This document shows positions 5,608 to 13,822 of a stretch of DNA of 32,000 nucleotides, piece after piece. The notes beneath the pieces were generated by a model. It made no database searches, was not told the DNA's origin, and was given only the letters and a program-made list of their open reading frames with translations. The DNA lies in NCBI RefSeq assembly GCF_016127575.1, contig NZ_CP066020.1, positions 360,001 through 392,000 on the forward strand. Direction: 5' to 3'. The first letter of the stretch is position 1; each line of letters opens with the position of its first letter. Both the position numbers and the translations under genes were made by a program. This stretch comes from Cupriavidus necator. GTDB taxonomy: Bacteria; Pseudomonadota; Gammaproteobacteria; Burkholderiales; Burkholderiaceae.

Positions 5608-6057
5608 ATGCGCTTCTCTTGCCTCGAACGCCACACCCCCATCGACTTCAATACCCGTCGCCAGGCCGCCTTCGCGCGCAAACAGCAGCGCGAGCGCGAC
5701 AGGTACCCGCTCTTTGCGGATCACGTGGCCGCCGAGCAGCATTCTCCCGACGAGGAACTTGCCCGTCGGCAACGGCGCTCCGACAACCTTGAAAGGACAA
5801 CGCGCGCCTTGCACGCACGCGTCTGGCGAGAGAAGCGCGCCATCTACTTCTCGCTCTCCGATGAACAACGTGCGGAGATCCGCGCAAAGTGGAAGGCATG
5901 GACCGGGCCTACAACCGCCCTCTACTTCGCCTACATCGTCGACACGGTCAGTGGCGAGTATGAGCGACGCTCGGAAGCCGCACGTGCAGACACACTGGCC
6001 ATCCGCCGACGCGTTCTAGCCTCGCTGCCCGAGCAAACTGCATTGGAGATCGCCTGA
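5608..6057 (+). CDS. Hypothetical protein (149 aa), first gene of the helicase operon
   Basis: ATG at 5608 (MRFSCLERHTPIDF...) lies downstream of the promoter-like motif. Its stop overlaps the helicase start (TGATG at 6055-6059). No clear SD. Confidence 0.6.
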   Translation: MRFSCLERHTPIDFNTRRQAAFARKQQRERDRYPLFADHVAAEQHSPDEELARRQRRSDNLERTTRALHARVWREKRAIYFSLSDEQRAEIRAKWKAWTGPTTALYFAYIVDTVSGEYERRSEAARADTLAIRRRVLASLPEQTALEIA

Positions 6058-7517
6058 TGGTCCCCACCGACGAACAGGCTTCCGTTGTCGACGCGGTCAA
6101 GGCCGGCGGGCCGCTGAAAGTCAAGGCGTATGCGGGCGCCGGCAAGACGTCGACGCTACGCCTGGCTGCCGAGGCCCGCGGCCGCGCGCGAGGGCTGTAT
6201 CTGGCCTTCAACAAGGACATCGCCAACGAGGCTGCCCAGAAATTCCCGCAGAACACCCGCTGCCGTACCGTCCACTCGCTCGCGTACAGCGCCACGCCGC
6301 CGGAACTCACCCGCAAGCTCAAGAACCCGGTCGAGCCGCCGCATCAGCTCGCTTTGCGCTACGGTCTCGCCAAGCTGCGCCTGCCGACGACGATCGGCAA
6401 GGATCTCGAACTGAGCGCCAGCAAGGTCGCCCGAATAGTGATGGACGGCGCGGCGCGTTTCTGCCGCTCCGCACAGGCCGAGCCTCTTGCGTGGCACATT
6501 CCAGTGGAGTCGATCGTGAAGGAGGAGGAGGCCGAGCATCTGCGCGACTCGCTGCTGCCCTACGTCAAGCGGCTCTGGGGTGAATACCTCGACCCCGCTT
6601 CCCCGTCAGCGATCGTTCACGACGTCTACGTAAAGAGGTGGGAGCGCAGCCGGCCGCGCATTGGTGCCGACTTCATCCTGTTCGACGAAGCGCAGGATGC
6701 CGATGGCCTGATGCTGTCGGTGCTGCGCGCGCAGCAGTCCCAGGTCATCTACGTCGGCGACCCGTACCAGCAGATCTACGAATGGCGCGGCGCGGTCAAC
6801 GCCATGGAGCATATTCGTGCACCTGAATGCGCTCTCACCGAATCGTTCCGTTTCGGCCCGGCCATCGCTCAACTGGCCAGCCGCGTGCTGCGGCTCATGG
6901 ACGAGGAAACGCCCGTCCGTGGACAGGACCACGTTGAGTCCCGGATCCTGCACGACTCAACGCCAGGACAGGATCGCTTCGACGCCATCCTGTGCCGCAA
7001 GAACGCGACGGTCCTGACGCACCTTGCCCAGGGCATCGGCCGGGGCGATCGCGTGGCGGTGCGCGCCAACGTCGACGAGCTCCGCGCCTTTGCCGACGGC
7101 GCCGAGCAGCTCATGCGCGGCCAGCGCATCGGCTACCCCGCCACCCTCGCCCTGTTCGAAACGTGGGAAGAGGTCCAGGAATATGCCGAATCGTTCGCCG
7201 GCCGCGACCTGAAGCCCCTCGTCACGTTGATCGACAACGAGGGCGTGGACTATCTGCGCCTGATCCTCACCCGCGTCTCGCCAGAGGATGAGGCCGACTA
7301 CATCGTGTCGACCGTCCACCGGGCCAAGGGCCTCGAATGGGAGCGCGTGCAGCTCGCCGGCGACTTCAAGTTCAAGACCGGCGACGACGGCGAACTCACC
7401 ATGGCACCGGAAGAGATGCGCCTGCTTTACGTCGCCATGACACGCGCGAAGCGCCTGCTCGATGTGAGCGAGATCCGGCGCGACCTCTACACCATGTTCC
7501 GGGAAGCCGGTGTCTAA
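6057..7517 (+). CDS. UvrD/Rep-like superfamily 1 DNA helicase (486 aa)
   Basis: Walker A YAGAGKTSTL, motif II ILFDEAQD, YQQIYEWRGA, and motif VI TVHRAKGLEWERV followed by LLYVAMTRAK. Confidence 0.9.
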   Translation: MVPTDEQASVVDAVKAGGPLKVKAYAGAGKTSTLRLAAEARGRARGLYLAFNKDIANEAAQKFPQNTRCRTVHSLAYSATPPELTRKLKNPVEPPHQLALRYGLAKLRLPTTIGKDLELSASKVARIVMDGAARFCRSAQAEPLAWHIPVESIVKEEEAEHLRDSLLPYVKRLWGEYLDPASPSAIVHDVYVKRWERSRPRIGADFILFDEAQDADGLMLSVLRAQQSQVIYVGDPYQQIYEWRGAVNAMEHIRAPECALTESFRFGPAIAQLASRVLRLMDEETPVRGQDHVESRILHDSTPGQDRFDAILCRKNATVLTHLAQGIGRGDRVAVRANVDELRAFADGAEQLMRGQRIGYPATLALFETWEEVQEYAESFAGRDLKPLVTLIDNEGVDYLRLILTRVSPEDEADYIVSTVHRAKGLEWERVQLAGDFKFKTGDDGELTMAPEEMRLLYVAMTRAKRLLDVSEIRRDLYTMFREAGV

Positions 7518-7527
7518 AGGAGAGACC

Positions 7528-8757
7528 ATGATCACCGTGCGGATTGGCGGGAACGAGTACCCGCTGGATGAGGTTTTGGAAGATCCCGGCCGCTACGCGC
7601 GCCACCTCGAGCGTGCCAAGACGATCCAGGGATTCGCGGAATGCGGCTGCGCAGAGGGCCGGCCGCGGCCCAAACTGGTGATCCGGCGACACCGCGATAT
7701 TTTCCTGCTCGCGCGCTGGCCGGAACAGGCGTTCCGGCACGCCGAAGGATGCCCCTTCCACCGGAAGACCCAGACAACGCCCGGCGCCGCCGACAGTCTC
7801 GACGCATTTCGCATGCGCGATGGCCGCCACGATATCCGCCTCGACGCCTCACTTTCGGTCAGCACCCACACACCGGCCAAAACCGTCCAGCGAACGCCGA
7901 AGGGCCAGTTCACAAAGCCGCAACGGCGATCCGCAGGCCTGCTGGCGCTCCTCGAATTCGCTTGGGAGCAGGCCGGTCTTAATGTCTGGCCTGGTACCGG
8001 TGCCCGCAGCTGGAACGGCTGCTGGTCACAGTTGACGGCCGAACTGGACGATTGCAGGATCAATGGCAAGGACGCCGACGGCCTGCTGCACGTCATGCAG
8101 CGGTGGGACCCGGCGCGGAAGTCCGAAATCCTGGCCGAGTTCGAGGCGTGGCAGGCTAGGCTTTCGCCTACCGCCGCCGGGAATCCCCGCGGCATTCTGA
8201 TCGGCGAAATCGAGTCGCACGCCGCCACCCAGTACGGAGGGAAGGTCGTCCTGCGCCAGAGCACGCAGCGGTTCTTCATGTCCTCGGGACTGTACGAACG
8301 CCTGCAGGCTTCCTTTGGCACCGCGCTGGCCGGCATCGGACGGGCCGAGCAACGGTGTGTCGCTGTCCTGCTCGTTGAGAAGTCCCGCTCGAACTACCTG
8401 ACGGTCGTCGATATTGGCGCCATGCTGGCAAACCGGCAGTTCCTGCCTTGCGACTCCTCCCATGAGGTCGCCATGGCCGATCACCTGGTCGCTCTGCGCC
8501 GGGCATTTCGCAAGCCGCTGCGGCATATCGGCCGAGCGGAGGTACACCCCGACTTCGTCCTGACCGATGTCCAGCCCGAAACGGTCATCGAAGTACTCGG
8601 CATGGCCGGCAATCCCGCGTACGACGCTCGGACGGCGAGCAAGCGCCAGCACTACCAGACTGCCGGCGTTCCATTTCTGGAATGGGATGCGGTAGCCACG
8701 TCGATTTCCAGCGTCCGCGTGCCGCCGGCTGGCACACGGGCAGCCGATGCACGCTGA
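7528..8757 (+). CDS. DUF1173-like protein (409 aa) with an N-terminal CxC...CxxH cluster and a C-terminal PD-(D/E)xK-like segment
   Basis: ATG at 7528 preceded by AAAGGAGAG. ECGCAEG...(35 aa)...GCPFH resembles a SWIM-type metal site. The C-terminal VHPDFVLTDVQPETVIEVLG resembles nuclease motifs II and III. The family assignment is from memory of ICE annotations. Confidence 0.75.
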   Translation: MITVRIGGNEYPLDEVLEDPGRYARHLERAKTIQGFAECGCAEGRPRPKLVIRRHRDIFLLARWPEQAFRHAEGCPFHRKTQTTPGAADSLDAFRMRDGRHDIRLDASLSVSTHTPAKTVQRTPKGQFTKPQRRSAGLLALLEFAWEQAGLNVWPGTGARSWNGCWSQLTAELDDCRINGKDADGLLHVMQRWDPARKSEILAEFEAWQARLSPTAAGNPRGILIGEIESHAATQYGGKVVLRQSTQRFFMSSGLYERLQASFGTALAGIGRAEQRCVAVLLVEKSRSNYLTVVDIGAMLANRQFLPCDSSHEVAMADHLVALRRAFRKPLRHIGRAEVHPDFVLTDVQPETVIEVLGMAGNPAYDARTASKRQHYQTAGVPFLEWDAVATSISSVRVPPAGTRAADAR

Positions 8758-9125: not shown

Positions 9126-9308
9126 TCAGGCGTCCACGACCTGAGCCAGACAAAGCGGATCGTCCTCACCTCGTTCCGTCGGCCCTACTCGGCGCAGCGG
9201 ATTTCGATGGCCGCATCCCTTGCAGATGAAAAAGAAGCCTCTCTCGTCCAGTTCTGGATCGGCCGCCGAAAACATCACCGACAGCCGGCATTCGGTGCAG
9301 GTCCACAT
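9126..9308 (-). CDS. Small zinc-ribbon protein (60 aa)
   Basis: MWTCTECRLSV...FFFICKGCGHRNPL has CxxC...CxxC, with GGGGGA 6 nt upstream of the ATG at 9308. The rest of the 252-aa track ORF is Arg-rich junk. Confidence 0.55.
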   Translation of the reverse strand: MWTCTECRLSVMFSAADPELDERGFFFICKGCGHRNPLRRVGPTERGEDDPLCLAQVVDA

Positions 9309-9322
9309 AGCAGTCCCCCGTC

Positions 9323-9349
9323 TTGACAATGCCCACCGCGCGATACGCT
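9323..9349 (+). promoter_or_regulatory. Promoter-like element TTGACA-N15-TACGCT upstream of the DUF5131/MTase operon
   Basis: CTTGACAATGCCCACCGCGCGATACGCT has the same geometry as four other sites. It gives a 240-nt leader to the ATG at 9590. Confidence 0.35.
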
Positions 9350-9589
9350 GACTCCAATGTAGCCGCGCACAAGCTAACCAGCCAGCCCAATGAAACCTGC
9401 CGCCCCTCATATCTCCCCGAAGACACCTGCCGCTACGGACATCGGCCGCGCGTCGCAGCCGCACTCGCCAGTCAGCGTCGGGCGAGGTGTCTGCGAGCTT
9501 TGCGGCTCGATTGCATCGCACCTCCACGTCGAGGCCAACCGGCCCGAGCGCGACACACGAACCCTGGACCTGTTCGAGGACCACCAACA

Positions 9590-10711
9590 ATGAGCGAAAA
9601 CACAAAGATCGAATGGACCGACCACAGCTGGAATCCGTGGGAGGGCTGCCAGCACGTTGGCCCTGGCTGTGACCACTGCTACGCGGAGACCCGTAATGCC
9701 CGCTTTGGCGGTGGCCAGGCCCAGAACTGGGGGCCCGGCGCCCCGCGCCGGCGCACGTCCGCCACCAACTGGCGCAAGCCGTTCCGCTGGAACCTGGCGC
9801 ACGCTGCCTTCGCCGCGGTGCACGGGCGCCGCCAGCGCGTCTTCTGCGCGAGCTTGGCCGATGTGTTCGACAACGAGGTGCCAATCGAATGGTTCATCGA
9901 CATGCTCGATGTGTGGCGGCAGACCCCAAACCTCGACAAGCTCGTGCTGACCAAGCGCATCGGCAACGCCATGAAGCGGCTGGGCGAAGCGTTCAATGCA
10001 CTGATGCTGCGCGACGACTGCGCGGAGAATCCCTTGGTGCCGTGGCTGGCCACGTGGATCGCAGGCAACGCACCCGCGGATATCTGGTTGGGGGCCACGA
10101 TCGTCAATCAGGCCGAAGCGGTACGAGACATTCCGAAGCTGTTGCGTGTCCCCGCCAAGACCCGCTTCCTGTCCATGGAGCCCCTGCTCGGCCACGTCGA
10201 CGTGTTCTCGACAATCACGGGCGAGCTGCTACACACGTCCGGCAACGATTACAACCCTGGTTCGATCGACTGGATCATCGCAGGCGGTGAGAGCGGAAGC
10301 GACGCACGCCCGATGCACCCTGCCTGGTCGCGCAGCTTGCGGGACCAGTGCGCAGCGGCGGGCGTGCCCTTCCTCCTAAAGCAGTGGGGCGAGTGGCATA
10401 CCGCTTCCGTGCTCACGACCTCTGGCGAGCCGGCATTCCGAACGTTCGAGACGTTTGAGCAATGGGTAAACAAGGCCAGCACCTGGGTCGGCGGCGGCAT
10501 CTGCCTCGACAAGCACGGCCAGCAGCTACAGAAGGGAGACGATTTCATCCGAGCACGCGACGAATGCCGCTTCCCAGTCACCGTCATGGACCGGGTGGGC
10601 AAGAAGGCAGCAGGCCGGCAACTCGACGGGATGCTGCATGACGCTTTCCCTGTGACCTCGTTGGACGTGGCGGAGGCCTGCCACCGCGCCCTGGGTCGTG
10701 GAGCAGTCTGA
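9590..10711 (+). CDS. Phage Gp37/Gp68 family (DUF5131) protein, long form (373 aa)
   Basis: The hallmark N-terminus is present: MSENTKIEWTDHSWNPWEGCQHVGPGCDHCYAE (three-Cys motif). The C-terminal ending is GRQLDGMLHDAFP. GAGGA lies 9 nt upstream of the ATG at 9590; the track start at 9323 is an extension. Confidence 0.85.
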   Translation: MSENTKIEWTDHSWNPWEGCQHVGPGCDHCYAETRNARFGGGQAQNWGPGAPRRRTSATNWRKPFRWNLAHAAFAAVHGRRQRVFCASLADVFDNEVPIEWFIDMLDVWRQTPNLDKLVLTKRIGNAMKRLGEAFNALMLRDDCAENPLVPWLATWIAGNAPADIWLGATIVNQAEAVRDIPKLLRVPAKTRFLSMEPLLGHVDVFSTITGELLHTSGNDYNPGSIDWIIAGGESGSDARPMHPAWSRSLRDQCAAAGVPFLLKQWGEWHTASVLTTSGEPAFRTFETFEQWVNKASTWVGGGICLDKHGQQLQKGDDFIRARDECRFPVTVMDRVGKKAAGRQLDGMLHDAFPVTSLDVAEACHRALGRGAV

Positions 10712-11952
10712 TGCGCCAACTAGACCTGTTCGCACACGTCGCCGCGGCGTTTGCAGACGCGTCCGAAGATGGGCTCTCCACCGGCGCTCTCTACGATATT
10801 GTGGCGCGTTCGGCGGGCATCGATCACAGCGCGGCCACGGCGCGCGTTCCGATCGGGACTGCAAAGGCACTGCATAGCCCATTCAAGCGTGCGGTTCGCT
10901 GGCACCAGCAGACGCTCAAGACGCTCGGTGTTGTCGAGCGTGTCGCCGATCGCACGGGATTCTGGCGCCTCACGCAGCCGGTCACCAAGGACCTCGACCG
11001 TGCAGCTGACGGCGTCAAGCTGGTCGCGTTCAGCACGATGCTCGGCATGGCCATCTGGGCTCGAAATGAGGATGTGTTTCGAGGATTGGCGGAACCCATC
11101 GCCTTGTGCGTCACGTCGCCGCCATACCCACTGCGGCAAGCCAGGGCATATGGCAATCCTACGGATAACCAGTATGTCGACTTCATCTGCGGGGCGCTCG
11201 AGCCGATCGTTGCCAATCTCGTGACCGGCGGCAGCATCGTCCTGAACATTTCCAACGACATCTTCCAGCACCGCAGTCCCGCCCGATCCCTCTATATGGA
11301 GCGGCTTGTGCTGGCCCTTCATGACCGACTCGGCTTGGCGCTGATGGACCGCATTCCATGGGTGAACTACAGCAAGCCGCCGGGCCCGACTCGATGGGCA
11401 TGCGTGGACCGTGTCCACCTCGCAACGGCATACGAGCCATTACTATGGCTGACGAACGATCCAGGCCGTGTCCGTGCCGACAACCGCCGCGTGCTGCAGG
11501 CCCATACCGAACGGCATCGGCGGCTGCTCGAAGCCGGTGGCGAACAGCGGTCAGCCAGTTACGGTGATGGTGCCTATCGGATCCGACCCCAGTCCTTTGG
11601 CAATCCGACATCCGGCCGGCTTTCCCGCAATGTCGTCGAACGCGGCCACCGCTGCGCCGACACCCTGGCCTACCGCAGGGCGGCCGCGACGCTTGGATTG
11701 CCCGCGCAAGGCGCCATGCAGCCTACCGCCATCCCGGACTTCTTTACAAGATTCCTGACCGAGCCTGGCGACCTGGTCGTCGATCCGTTCGGCGGCACGA
11801 TCCGTACGGGCCTCGCCGCCGAGCGATTGGGCAGGCGCTGGATCGTCACGGAATGGATCCTCCAGTATGCTCGCGGCGCCGCCGAGCTGTTTCGTCAGTC
11901 CGACGGCTTCCTGATGCACCCCGCCCTCCAATGGGCTTCCCAAGGTCGATAG
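10711..11952 (+). CDS. Beta-class N4/N6 DNA methyltransferase (413 aa) with an extra ~115-aa N-terminal domain
   Basis: Motif IV CVTSPPYPL precedes motif I LVVDPFGGTIRTGLAAERLGRRW, the order typical of the N6_N4_Mtase family. The start overlaps the DUF5131 stop (TGATG at 10709-10713). Confidence 0.9.
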   Translation: MRQLDLFAHVAAAFADASEDGLSTGALYDIVARSAGIDHSAATARVPIGTAKALHSPFKRAVRWHQQTLKTLGVVERVADRTGFWRLTQPVTKDLDRAADGVKLVAFSTMLGMAIWARNEDVFRGLAEPIALCVTSPPYPLRQARAYGNPTDNQYVDFICGALEPIVANLVTGGSIVLNISNDIFQHRSPARSLYMERLVLALHDRLGLALMDRIPWVNYSKPPGPTRWACVDRVHLATAYEPLLWLTNDPGRVRADNRRVLQAHTERHRRLLEAGGEQRSASYGDGAYRIRPQSFGNPTSGRLSRNVVERGHRCADTLAYRRAAATLGLPAQGAMQPTAIPDFFTRFLTEPGDLVVDPFGGTIRTGLAAERLGRRWIVTEWILQYARGAAELFRQSDGFLMHPALQWASQGR

Positions 11953-11954
11953 CA

Positions 11955-12227
11955 ATGCAGCACCACGACAACGAAGACAGAGAATTTCCCGAGCCCGAGA
12001 CCGTCCTTGCCATTCGGGGGGCAATCGCCACCGGCCGGATGGGCGGCCCGATGGGCGAGCCCGGCCACTGGCTCAACGAGTTCTGGCAGGTCGGCGCGGC
12101 GTTGCGTGATCACGCTGAGATCCTCCAGGGTGTCCAGGGCGCAAATCGAAGAGCCTTCCTGAGCACCACAGCCGACTATCTGGCTGCCAGCGAAACAACT
12201 TCTGAACACGCCGGCGACCGGAACTGA
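11955..12227 (+). CDS. Hypothetical protein (90 aa)
   Basis: The ATG lies 2 nt after the MTase stop. MQHHDNEDREFPEPETVLAIRG..., GC-rich third positions, weak SD. Confidence 0.45.
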   Translation: MQHHDNEDREFPEPETVLAIRGAIATGRMGGPMGEPGHWLNEFWQVGAALRDHAEILQGVQGANRRAFLSTTADYLAASETTSEHAGDRN

Positions 12228-12284
12228 CCGAGCCCCAGCCGCGGGCAGGCATAATTCCGGCATTTTTCAGCACTGGATCTCGCC

Positions 12285-12875
12285 ATGCCTAGCGGCCTCT
12301 TTCAATGCGCGCACTGCGGCGGCGCGCCCACCTACGTCGCCGGCCGGCTCCAGGCCGTCATCGCCTGCGACGAATGCGGGATGTCAACGCCGCCGGTCGA
12401 GAACGATCCCAGGAATAGGGACGCCGCCTTCCCGCGACTCAGCGCCATCTGGAACAGCCGCGTCGACCTTCGCCCGGCCGACAAGGAAGCCATCTCCATG
12501 ATCGCCCGGCGTGCGCTGACCTCCTCCGACATCCCCTATTTCCTCAATCTTCTCGCCTCCACAACCAGCGACTGGGAAGCCAACGGACCGATGTTCGCGA
12601 CGATGGCTGCAGCCCTTACCCAGCCCGGCTACGAGTTCAAGCACGTCGGCCCGCCCGAAACTGTTCTCTCGCAAGCCGCCCGCTACCAGAAGCTGCTGCA
12701 GCGCGCGAAGGTCATCCATATCGATGGCGCTCCGATGGTGCGCTTTGAGCATGTGCCGGCCTTGGCCGCGGAAGTCGCGGAGGAGGGTCTGGCGGATCAG
12801 GATTGGCCGCTCCTCGACATGGAAGAATTCGTCGGTAAGGCCATCGACAGCCTGCCGGATCATTGGCAGCCTTGA
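12285..12875 (+). CDS. Protein with an N-terminal Lar-like (restriction alleviation) zinc ribbon (196 aa)
   Basis: FQCAHCGGAPTYVAG...VIACDECGMSTPP...RLSAIWNSR matches the Lar family pattern CxxCGG...CxxC...WNxR. The C-terminal ~125 aa are unassigned. Confidence 0.65.
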   Translation: MPSGLFQCAHCGGAPTYVAGRLQAVIACDECGMSTPPVENDPRNRDAAFPRLSAIWNSRVDLRPADKEAISMIARRALTSSDIPYFLNLLASTTSDWEANGPMFATMAAALTQPGYEFKHVGPPETVLSQAARYQKLLQRAKVIHIDGAPMVRFEHVPALAAEVAEEGLADQDWPLLDMEEFVGKAIDSLPDHWQP

Positions 12876-12932
12876 CTTTGCCCAGCGGCGGGCAAGCTGA
12901 AGGCGTATCCACTTCAACGGAATTCCCCTCAG

Positions 12933-13822
12933 ATGACCCGCCAGCTTCTCGCAGCAGTCGTTCTCTCCCTTGCATCCCTCACGGCAAGCGCACGGGACAC
13001 GGGACAGGCCTGTGCTCACGTCCTGCCTACGGGCCAACCCACGACTCAACCAGCGGGCCGCACGCAGTTGCTGTGCTACCGCGCCTACGCCGTTCTCTAT
13101 TCGAGCCAGACACGCACCGCGCTGTGGTCTGCCGAGCGTCTCACGCGGGAGGCCGTCGACGCCGCGCGCAAGCTGCCACGCGACAGCGACTTCTACGAAG
13201 AGGAGCGACTGCCCGAAGCCGACCGCGCCAGGCTGGCCGACTACCGACGCGGATCGGGCATGGATCGAGGGCCCCGAGCGGCGACTTCCCGGACAAGGCG
13301 TCCCAAGCCGAGAGCTTCAGCCTCGCGAACGTTATCCCCCAACACAGCGTGTCGAACCGCCGCACCTGGAGTCACATCGAGACGTCCACACGCAGGCTGG
13401 CCCGCCAGCACGGTGCGATCCAGGTGGTGACCGGCCCCGCATTCGTCGGCACCCCGAGGACGCTGGGCCACGTGCACATCCCCGACTTCATTTGGAAAGC
13501 GATCCACGTGCCAGGCATTGGCGCCGCCGTCTACCTTGTCCGCAACGACGCGACGCCCGCGTACAGTGTCATTAGCGTCGCAGAATTGCGGCACTTTGCA
13601 GGGATCGACCCGTTTCCGACACTCCCCAAGGCCATGAACGCCACGGCGATGGACCTGCCCCTTCCCACCCCGCACCCTGGTGAGAAGGCGGCGCGCCGCG
13701 TCGCGTTCGCATGGCTTGCATCGGGCGAAGCCGCCGCGGCCTCGCGCGCGACGGAGCCTCTCCACCAAGCCATCCGGGACGCAAGTGCAATCCTGTCGCT
13801 GGCCCTCGCCCACGCACGTTAG
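12933..13822 (+). pseudogene. Secreted DNA/RNA non-specific (DRGH-type) endonuclease, frameshifted within the catalytic motif
   Basis: The frame from 12933 gives a signal peptide (MTRQLLAAVVLSLASLTASA) and ...LADYRRGSGMDRG, then degenerates. The -1 frame continues APSGDFPDKASQAESFSLANVIPQHSVSNRRTWSHIETSTRRLA...VVTGPAF to 13822. The break is at the C4 run at 13272-13275. Confidence 0.8.

Follow-up and report, generated by a model that had tools for sequence, protein, structure and literature searches.

We analysed an operon lying in a 32-kb stretch of Cupriavidus necator DNA (the window, whose positions are used throughout), in which a gene of the DUF5131 (Gp37/Gp68) family is directly followed by a DNA methyltransferase gene. 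Positions 9300-13000 of the window are 100% identical to the megaplasmid pHG1 of C. necator H16 (NC_005241.1, 338156-341856), which is 452 kb long and predicted to be conjugative (MOBH/MOBP). An earlier reading of the sequence alone (the original prediction) had proposed that the two genes form a coupled DNA-modification and anti-restriction module. We find that they are gained and lost separately, and they are probably independent plasmid genes, 'establishment' cargo rather than one machine.

Positions 9590-12875 form one tight four-gene operon on the + strand, whose products are named in RefSeq, in order, phage Gp37/Gp68 family protein, site-specific DNA-methyltransferase, hypothetical protein and Lar family restriction alleviation protein. 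The first gene (9590..10711, +; WP_011154236, old name PHG324; PF07505) encodes a long-form DUF5131 protein of 373 amino acids (aa). The second (10711..11952, +; WP_011154237; PF01555, PDB 1BOO) encodes an orphan beta-class, M.PvuII-like DNA methyltransferase of 413 aa and of predicted N4-cytosine type. They are followed by the genes for a conserved 90-aa protein (11955..12227, +) and for a Lar-like protein of 196 aa (12285..12875, +). Direct reading of the sequence confirmed the predicted open reading frames (ORFs) and the TGATG at 10709..10713 exactly: at the junction (...GTC TGA TGC...), the TGA stop of the DUF5131 gene (10709-10711) shares its A with the ATG of the methyltransferase gene (10711-10713). 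The next junction is equally tight, the methyltransferase stop (TAG, 11950-11952) being followed 2 nt later by the ATG of the 90-aa ORF, and a 57-nt gap then precedes the ATG of the Lar-like gene. Such an overlap would reflect the dense packing usual for mobile-element operons and need not imply an obligate complex.

The methyltransferase matches PF01555 (E=1.3e-18, 68.2 bits against a cut-off of 26.7) and the PADLOC profile MTase_II (E=2e-41). Its motif IV, TSPPY (aa 135-139; SPPY at aa 136-139, 11116-11127), precedes motif I, DPFGGT (aa 358-363, 11782-11799), and aa 127-396 align to M.PvuII (PDB 1BOO) with E=2.4e-36, against 1.7e-5 for CcrM and values near 1e-5 for adenine enzymes of the CcrM type. 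The proposal that TSPPY marks an N4-cytosine enzyme is therefore supported by the alignment to M.PvuII: the two enzymes share the beta-class order of motif IV before motif I and the SPP[YF] signature, which is present in 105/120 homologues, over a 270-residue alignment, and the pHG1 enzyme is predicted to be of the N4-cytosine type. Contrary to M.PvuII, it carries an additional N-terminal domain, as the original prediction had noted: the first ~125 residues contain a sub-threshold match to the Mrr_N winged helix (E=5e-4; ~10768-10977), and the same match is precomputed for most homologues. It further differs in being carried on a plasmid backbone and in lacking a cognate endonuclease or C protein. 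Domain and PADLOC profile searches found no restriction enzyme or nuclease domain in its operon neighbours (DUF5131, the 90-aa ORF and the Lar-like protein), and since no cognate endonuclease adjoins it, the methyltransferase is an orphan. It would act alone, the winged helix and the target-recognition parts binding the DNA site and the M.PvuII-like catalytic domain transferring the methyl group from S-adenosylmethionine (SAM) to the N4 position of cytosine.

The DUF5131 protein matches PF07505 over the full model (model positions 1-243 over aa 4-354; E=1.1e-87, 294.1 bits against a cut-off of 28.9). The predicted cysteine triad, CQHVGPGCDHC, is present (C20-x6-C27-x2-C30, 9647-9679), together with a GGESG motif at 10283-10297; triad and GGE[SL]G are both kept in 117/120 homologues. 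The protein had been called unusually long, which holds against the 243-position Pfam model, because of two insertions common to its subfamily, but does not hold within that subfamily, where its 373 aa are normal (298-412 aa among the 120 closest homologues, median 350).

RadicalSAM.org/SFLD lists DUF5131 as a subgroup of a megacluster that also contains spore photoproduct lyase, a radical SAM DNA repair enzyme (PDB 4FHC/4FHG; PMC9477430), and the pHG1 protein weakly matches TIGR04471, a radical SAM mobile-pair protein. Its AlphaFold2 (AF2) model (pLDDT 84, pTM 0.82) contains alternating beta/alpha elements, and the best radical-SAM match of this model in Foldseek is again spore photoproduct lyase (probability 0.7-0.8, TM 0.33-0.39, E>0.01), with LIAS also among such matches. 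This structural match is weak, and the cluster motif of DUF5131 is CX6CX2C, in contrast to the canonical radical SAM spacing CX3CX2C found in the lyase. One phage record gives the name 'spore photoproduct lyase' to a homologue of DUF5131. No PDB chain was matched when its profile was searched against PDB sequences, and no functional study was found in the literature under DUF5131, PF07505, Gp37Gp68, PHG324/325 or the WP accessions. Because of the superfamily listing, the three-cysteine and GGE motifs and the nearest radical-SAM neighbour of the model, we regard DUF5131 as most likely a member of the radical-SAM superfamily, an iron-sulfur enzyme that uses SAM, with Cx6Cx2C as its cluster motif and GGE as its SAM motif, that would act alone and on nucleic acid.

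Natural variants of the locus separate the two genes. C. taiwanensis keeps the complete gene order (DUF1173, a small protein, DUF5131, methyltransferase, 90-aa ORF, Lar-like, endonuclease, HU and integrase-like genes), and the DUF5131-methyltransferase adjacency seen in pHG1 and C. taiwanensis is also kept in C. metallidurans CP151112 and C. numazuensis; it is confined to pHG1-type Cupriavidus plasmids. Within these plasmids, the methyltransferase gene has been lost outright, shortened or disrupted on at least three occasions. In C. oxalaticus X32 a gene for an unrelated 109-aa protein takes its place (locus L002, 6517-6846, MPSSFSNWFVSTFG...), so the slot accepts different cargo. Only remnants are left in strain T2 (aa 347-413) and in pMOL28 (aa 294-411), and in Cupriavidus sp. 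EM10 the match is split in two pieces with no annotated coding sequence (CDS). DUF5131 is retained in all four despite the loss or decay of the methyltransferase, at full length in X32 and T2, and it evolves there under purifying selection: the ratio of nonsynonymous to synonymous substitution rates (dN/dS) against pHG1 is 0.117 in X32 and 0.089 in T2, no different from the 0.099 of the C. taiwanensis plasmid, which has the methyltransferase. Two other Cupriavidus plasmids carry members of both families at a distance of 29-41 kb; in P. atlantica pBC201, DUF5131 is directly followed by the Lar-like gene with no methyltransferase between them; and R. pickettii and B. cenocepacia plasmids contain the DUF1173 ... 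Lar-like ... integrase frame without DUF5131 or methyltransferase. From these variants within and beyond the pHG1 lineage, the operon is a mosaic of three independent units in a variable slot.

The methyltransferase family also extends far beyond the range of DUF5131. The family search returned at least 1,654 matches among the 8,000 candidates scored (the best 120 at 57-98% identity), and tblastn found orthologues in 2,239 plasmid records, 1,883 of them predicted to be conjugative, led by Klebsiella (669), Escherichia (443), Salmonella (324), Enterobacter (269) and Pseudomonas (142). DUF5131 was found in 214 plasmid records, mostly of Burkholderiaceae, so that the methyltransferase is about tenfold more widespread in plasmids. 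On IncC plasmids the methyltransferase (WP_000098294.1, with SPPF) is a backbone gene among ParB-like and hypothetical genes upstream of parA/korB, and no DUF5131 gene lies near it. This enzyme and its relatives in Pseudomonas, Vibrio, Burkholderia and Acidithiobacillus have the same two domains as the pHG1 enzyme, a length of ~415 aa and 57-66% identity to it over 93-98%, and they too are carried by conjugative elements; they differ in having no DUF5131 neighbour and, for many, in lying in arrays of C5 and N6 methyltransferases. Five of the six orthologue contexts sampled outside the pHG1 lineage contained no DUF5131 gene: a Ralstonia orthologue among H-NS genes, an Acidithiobacillus orthologue adjoining an RNase H gene, a B. 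cenocepacia orthologue (L010) ~4 kb from a relaxase/NikA pair and then a C5 methyltransferase, and two gene arrays, one with C5, N6/Eco57I and N4-cytosine methyltransferases followed by SSB (L177) and one with C5 and N4-cytosine methyltransferases (L178). The sixth (L176) contained both families. Separate losses in the pHG1 lineage and this disparity in spread argue against the part of the original prediction that made DUF5131 a stoichiometric partner directing or extending the modification.

The neighbourhoods of DUF5131 itself lead to the same result. Its family search gave at least 8,000 matches, from which we sampled 80 genomic loci of different species and 80 viral contigs, with genes called anew, and we searched them for DNA methyltransferases from seeds for the N4/N6, C5, D12 and N6_Mtase classes. 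Immediately adjacent methyltransferases of any class, counted as a lower bound, occurred in 8/160 loci (4 of 80 viral loci, 4 of 60 genomic loci and none of the remaining 20 genomic loci, which are linked to TcmP as described below), and a methyltransferase of the pHG1 type stood beside DUF5131 in a single one, from C. numazuensis (L011). The conserved adjacency in other genomes that had been expected is thus largely absent, 152/160 DUF5131 loci and 5/6 orthologue contexts speaking against it. This census shows DUF5131 and methyltransferases as loose co-residents of the modules for early functions or DNA handling in mobile elements, and not as a conserved pair. In prophages, long-form DUF5131 genes lie one to four genes upstream of the integrase, with neighbours that vary by locus. 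Their commonest immediate downstream neighbour is a family of ~232 aa with no Pfam match (MTEHPILFSGPM...RKTQTRR...), found at +1/+2 in 12/80 viral loci (L100, L102, L119, L123 and others). This family seemingly also occurs in three genomic loci (L015, L066, L089), as judged by eye and without direct comparison. Other neighbours in viral loci are ParB-like proteins, C5 methyltransferases, YqaJ recombinases and a fusion protein with a C-terminal PF01555 domain, whose N-terminal half has no Pfam match and looks helicase-like by eye. On pBCJ2315 of B. cenocepacia J2315 (L175, 6561-9482), DUF5131 overlaps its neighbours within an F-type tra operon, between an HNH gene and traH. This arrangement suggests that DUF5131 is co-expressed with the conjugation machinery in that plasmid family, which accounts for most of the 95 Burkholderia plasmid matches of DUF5131. 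In pHG1, DUF5131 would act on its own, as in the many prophages and plasmids where no methyltransferase accompanies it.

The recurrent partner of the DUF5131 family is a different protein, TcmP (TIGR04474, E down to 8e-59), which we found in 20/80 genomic loci, mostly immediately downstream. DUF5131 comes in two architectures, a short one of 251-320 aa that accompanies TcmP and a long one of about 300-430 aa, with two insertions, in prophages and plasmids; every TcmP case, whether of the ~418-aa or the ~290-aa form, belongs to a DUF5131 protein of 251-320 aa (for example in genomic loci L041-L070). The DUF5131-TcmP pairs correspond to the PADLOC candidate defence systems PDC-M30 and PDC-M41, since the TcmP neighbours match PDC-M30A/M41A and TIGR04474, and the pHG1 DUF5131 protein itself matches PDC-M41B (E=2.6e-47) and PDC-M30B (E=1.2e-45). 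The pHG1 pair could then be a related defence system, with DUF5131 as the effector and the methyltransferase in place of TcmP as a self-marking or sensing partner, the more so as a D[GL]F[AS]G stretch of TcmP aligns locally with motif I of the methyltransferase. We consider this very unlikely. Profile-profile comparison (hhalign) of TcmP with the methyltransferase gave nothing beyond this short motif I alignment, at an insignificant probability of 0.3-1.7%, and we rejected it as evidence of a relationship. TcmP was absent from all 80 viral long-form loci (L094-L173), a purpose-built TcmP profile matched no ORF of the window, and no neighbour matched PDC-M30A/M41A. DUF5131 persists alone in sister plasmids without toxicity, and the setting is a plasmid backbone with no defence island. 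The TcmP-linked proteins share with pHG1 DUF5131 the family and the Cx6Cx2C and GGE[ST]G motifs; they differ in being short forms from genomic loci of diverse bacteria, the pHG1 protein being a long form with two insertions and belonging to the prophage and plasmid group. For TcmP we found no sequence relative in the PDB, and its sole Pfam match was a sub-threshold GMT-like winged-helix domain.

The third unit of the mosaic would be formed by the 90-aa ORF and the Lar-like gene. The 90-aa ORF, rightly placed in the operon by the original prediction, encodes a conserved protein that is 72-84% identical in Cupriavidus plasmids and has a homologue in Ralstonia pickettii pRp12D0 (40% identity, E=2.5e-18); domain profile searches gave no family match. 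It travels with the Lar-like gene, which its homologues precede in the Cupriavidus plasmids and in pRp12D0. The Lar-type identity of the fourth product stands in part: it has a four-Cys zinc ribbon (12306-12377) and the RefSeq Lar name, but it falls below both the Pfam and the NCBIfam cut-offs (Lar_restr_allev, 22.7 against 28.6 bits, E=1.2e-4; TIGR03655, 18 against 39.6 bits, E=2.7e-3). The match covers only aa 7-59, the N-terminal ribbon, in which C8, C11, C28 and C31 are invariant in 14 homologues. With Lar of the Rac prophage (restriction alleviation, PF14354/TIGR03655) it shares a similar CxxC...CxxC ribbon of ~55 residues, a mobile element as carrier and a methyltransferase neighbour; it differs in being three times longer, with an unrelated C-terminal region of ~135 aa, and in having close homologues in Burkholderiaceae plasmids only (a family of 40 proteins, all from Cupriavidus, and 68 Burkholderiaceae plasmids by tblastn). 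Its AF2 model is poor (pLDDT 52, and <50 over the C-terminal 100 residues).

The conserved gene order ends with a pseudogene of a secreted-type DNA/RNA non-specific endonuclease (12933..13822, +; PF01223, E=4e-18 for the 3' frame). A tblastn search with the intact protein of X32 put aa 1-113 in frame 2 and aa 110-285 in frame 1, which places the frameshift near 13255-13270; the H16 record has no CDS for it. Intact copies exist in C. oxalaticus, in pMOL28 and in R. pickettii plasmids; in C. taiwanensis the gene is split into two CDS.

Around the operon lies a megaplasmid backbone, with genes for a PRTRC ParB, a large helicase, a UvrD-like protein, DUF1173 and an FtsK-gamma-like protein upstream, and for the frameshifted endonuclease, HU, an integrase-domain protein, PRTRC protein D, a primase, SSB and an FlhC-like regulator downstream. 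The SSB and primase genes are ~8 kb downstream of the operon, and type IV pilus and type IV secretion system (T4SS)/TraI/TraD genes follow 20-40 kb beyond its surroundings. The operon would thus occupy a variable slot of an otherwise conserved Burkholderiaceae megaplasmid backbone, framed by DUF1173, the small ORF and Lar-like gene, the endonuclease and the integrase-like gene, in a PRTRC/SSB/primase neighbourhood. GC content is flat across the operon (0.63-0.66), so that composition gives no clue to a recent insertion. The UvrD-like protein (6057-8757, +, in the region with DUF1173) matches Gabija GajB profiles (E about 1e-16), and DUF1173 has a weak match to the PADLOC candidate PDC-S68 (E=4.6e-6). 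Plasmids of Cupriavidus, Paraburkholderia and Burkholderia keep both genes upstream of the Lar-like slot. Divergent from the operon lies a small ORF of 60 aa (9126..9308, -; MWTCTECRLSV...) with a CxxC...CxxC zinc ribbon. It makes up the C-terminal part of ORF 9126..9884 on the minus strand and has no annotation in H16; the annotation of C. oxalaticus X32 includes the same gene of 183 nt. The 281-bp gap between this ORF and position 9590 is likely the promoter region of the operon, which the zinc-ribbon protein could regulate.

What would such an operon do? Of the self-protection or anti-restriction module first proposed, the protective part appears reasonable, because the methyltransferase is an orphan of a family typical of conjugative elements; the DUF5131-coupled modification module finds no support. 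M.EcoGIX of pESBL is a promiscuous N6-methyladenine (m6A) enzyme, whereas the pHG1 methyltransferase is predicted to be of the N4-cytosine type. The pHG1 enzyme and the orphan methyltransferases of plasmid leading regions (Samuel et al. 2024, PMC11541004, where M.EcoGIX is cited) have in common that they are orphans on conjugative plasmids and cluster with genes for SSB, ParB-like proteins and putative anti-restriction functions; no single-strand promoter-like hairpin was found upstream of the pHG1 operon. Orphan methyltransferases are one of the most prominent gene classes in plasmid leading regions, and their presumed task there is to protect an incoming plasmid against restriction (PMC11541004). 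By its homology and gene context, the pHG1 methyltransferase may likewise protect the plasmid from restriction after transfer, its methylation pre-protecting pHG1 in new hosts, a role proposed for the orthologues in IncC and in multi-methyltransferase arrays. An anti-restriction or establishment cassette, perhaps expressed on entry into a new host as first proposed, is thus plausible.

Such an enzyme might instead serve mainly for epigenetic or housekeeping control of the plasmid, acting on its replication, partition or transfer. The IncC orthologue is a conserved backbone gene beside ParB-like and parA/korB genes, the pHG1 gene is not demonstrably in a leading region, and orphan methyltransferases often have regulatory roles (review PMC13201069). 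This explanation seems unlikely to us, since pHG1-type backbones that are otherwise intact have repeatedly lost the methyltransferase and no matching motif is reported for the vegetative H16 methylome. Moreover, it commonly stands beside SSB or a relaxase in arrays with C5 and N6 methyltransferases that differ in specificity, and such arrays fit broad protection better than regulation. In the literature, we found no relevant N4-methylcytosine (m4C) data on the IncC methyltransferases and no report of the specificity of any orthologue.

Several observations weigh against our reading of the operon as independent establishment cargo. The REBASE PacBio summary for H16 (PMC12645576) lists two m6A motifs and no m4C motif, so that the methyltransferase may be silent, inactive or active at a low level in culture; the missing motif could be explained by a gene that is silent in vegetative growth, or by an inactive enzyme. 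The same paper assigns a GTWWAC orphan methyltransferase to E6A55_RS13360 in its text and to E6A55_RS33850 in its Table S1, and these tags are inconsistent; RefSeq now gives RS33850 to the DUF1173 gene, which lies 2 kb upstream of the operon, and RS33870 to the pHG1 methyltransferase. A scan for the sigma-70 consensus upstream of the operon yielded a few weak terminator-like sites but no promoter. The upstream 300 nt, in which there are only two weak inverted repeats, fold no better than shuffled sequence (z=0.2) and contain no single-strand promoter-like hairpin, hence no support for an Frpo-like single-strand promoter. The MOBH TraI/TraD genes are ~40 kb away. For DUF5131, the AF2 model gave no Foldseek match at E<=0.001, so that its likeness to radical SAM enzymes is not significant. 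Lastly, methyltransferases within 5 kb are more frequent around long-form DUF5131 genes (by these lower-bound counts, in 10/60 genomic loci and 20/80 viral loci, or 17-25%) than around TcmP-linked ones (1/20), and all those in the census lie on the same strand as DUF5131. In Solimonas marina (L024), a DPPY methyltransferase unrelated to the pHG1 enzyme overlaps DUF5131 by 4 nt. The metagenomic contig L176 (510-6096) encodes, on the same strand, a C5 methyltransferase, a 359-aa DUF5131 protein, a 186-aa protein, an N4-cytosine methyltransferase and a Dam-like D12 methyltransferase, and it is the only context outside Cupriavidus in which DUF5131 lies close to a methyltransferase of the pHG1 type.

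These last pairings make a looser functional link possible, in which long-form DUF5131 would tend to be found in the same early modules as methyltransferases of any class, and they also bear on a stronger proposal, that DUF5131 and the methyltransferase cooperate, the radical-SAM-like enzyme extending or redirecting the methyl mark into a non-canonical modification that evades restriction. The one-base stop/start overlap, the relation of both proteins to SAM and the adjacency kept in four Cupriavidus lineages would all be in keeping with such cooperation. We nevertheless judge it quite unlikely: the methyltransferase family is present on far more plasmids, including an IncC backbone that lacks DUF5131; nearly all DUF5131 loci have no adjacent methyltransferase; at least three independent losses of the methyltransferase left DUF5131 under purifying selection; and the usual partner of the DUF5131 family, TcmP, is another protein and is absent from the window. 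More speculatively, and with an equally slim chance of being right, long-form DUF5131 may be a radical-SAM-type enzyme that alters or repairs mobile-element DNA during establishment, as a general companion of orphan-methyltransferase arrays. If true, this would amount to a new DNA modification or anti-restriction activity, of which pHG1 and L176 would be two visible cases of cooperation.

Taken as separately gained and lost genes, DUF5131 and the methyltransferase make this locus an ordinary, already annotated piece of plasmid backbone, in which an orphan methyltransferase of a type common on conjugative elements stands beside unrelated cargo. The methyltransferase family is very widespread and includes the IncC backbone enzyme of clinical resistance plasmids, so its recognition site and a role in restriction evasion would matter for host range. 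The pHG1-type plasmids, for their part, provide natural methyltransferase-plus and methyltransferase-minus backgrounds in which DUF5131, a member of a very large radical-SAM-related family, may be tested.

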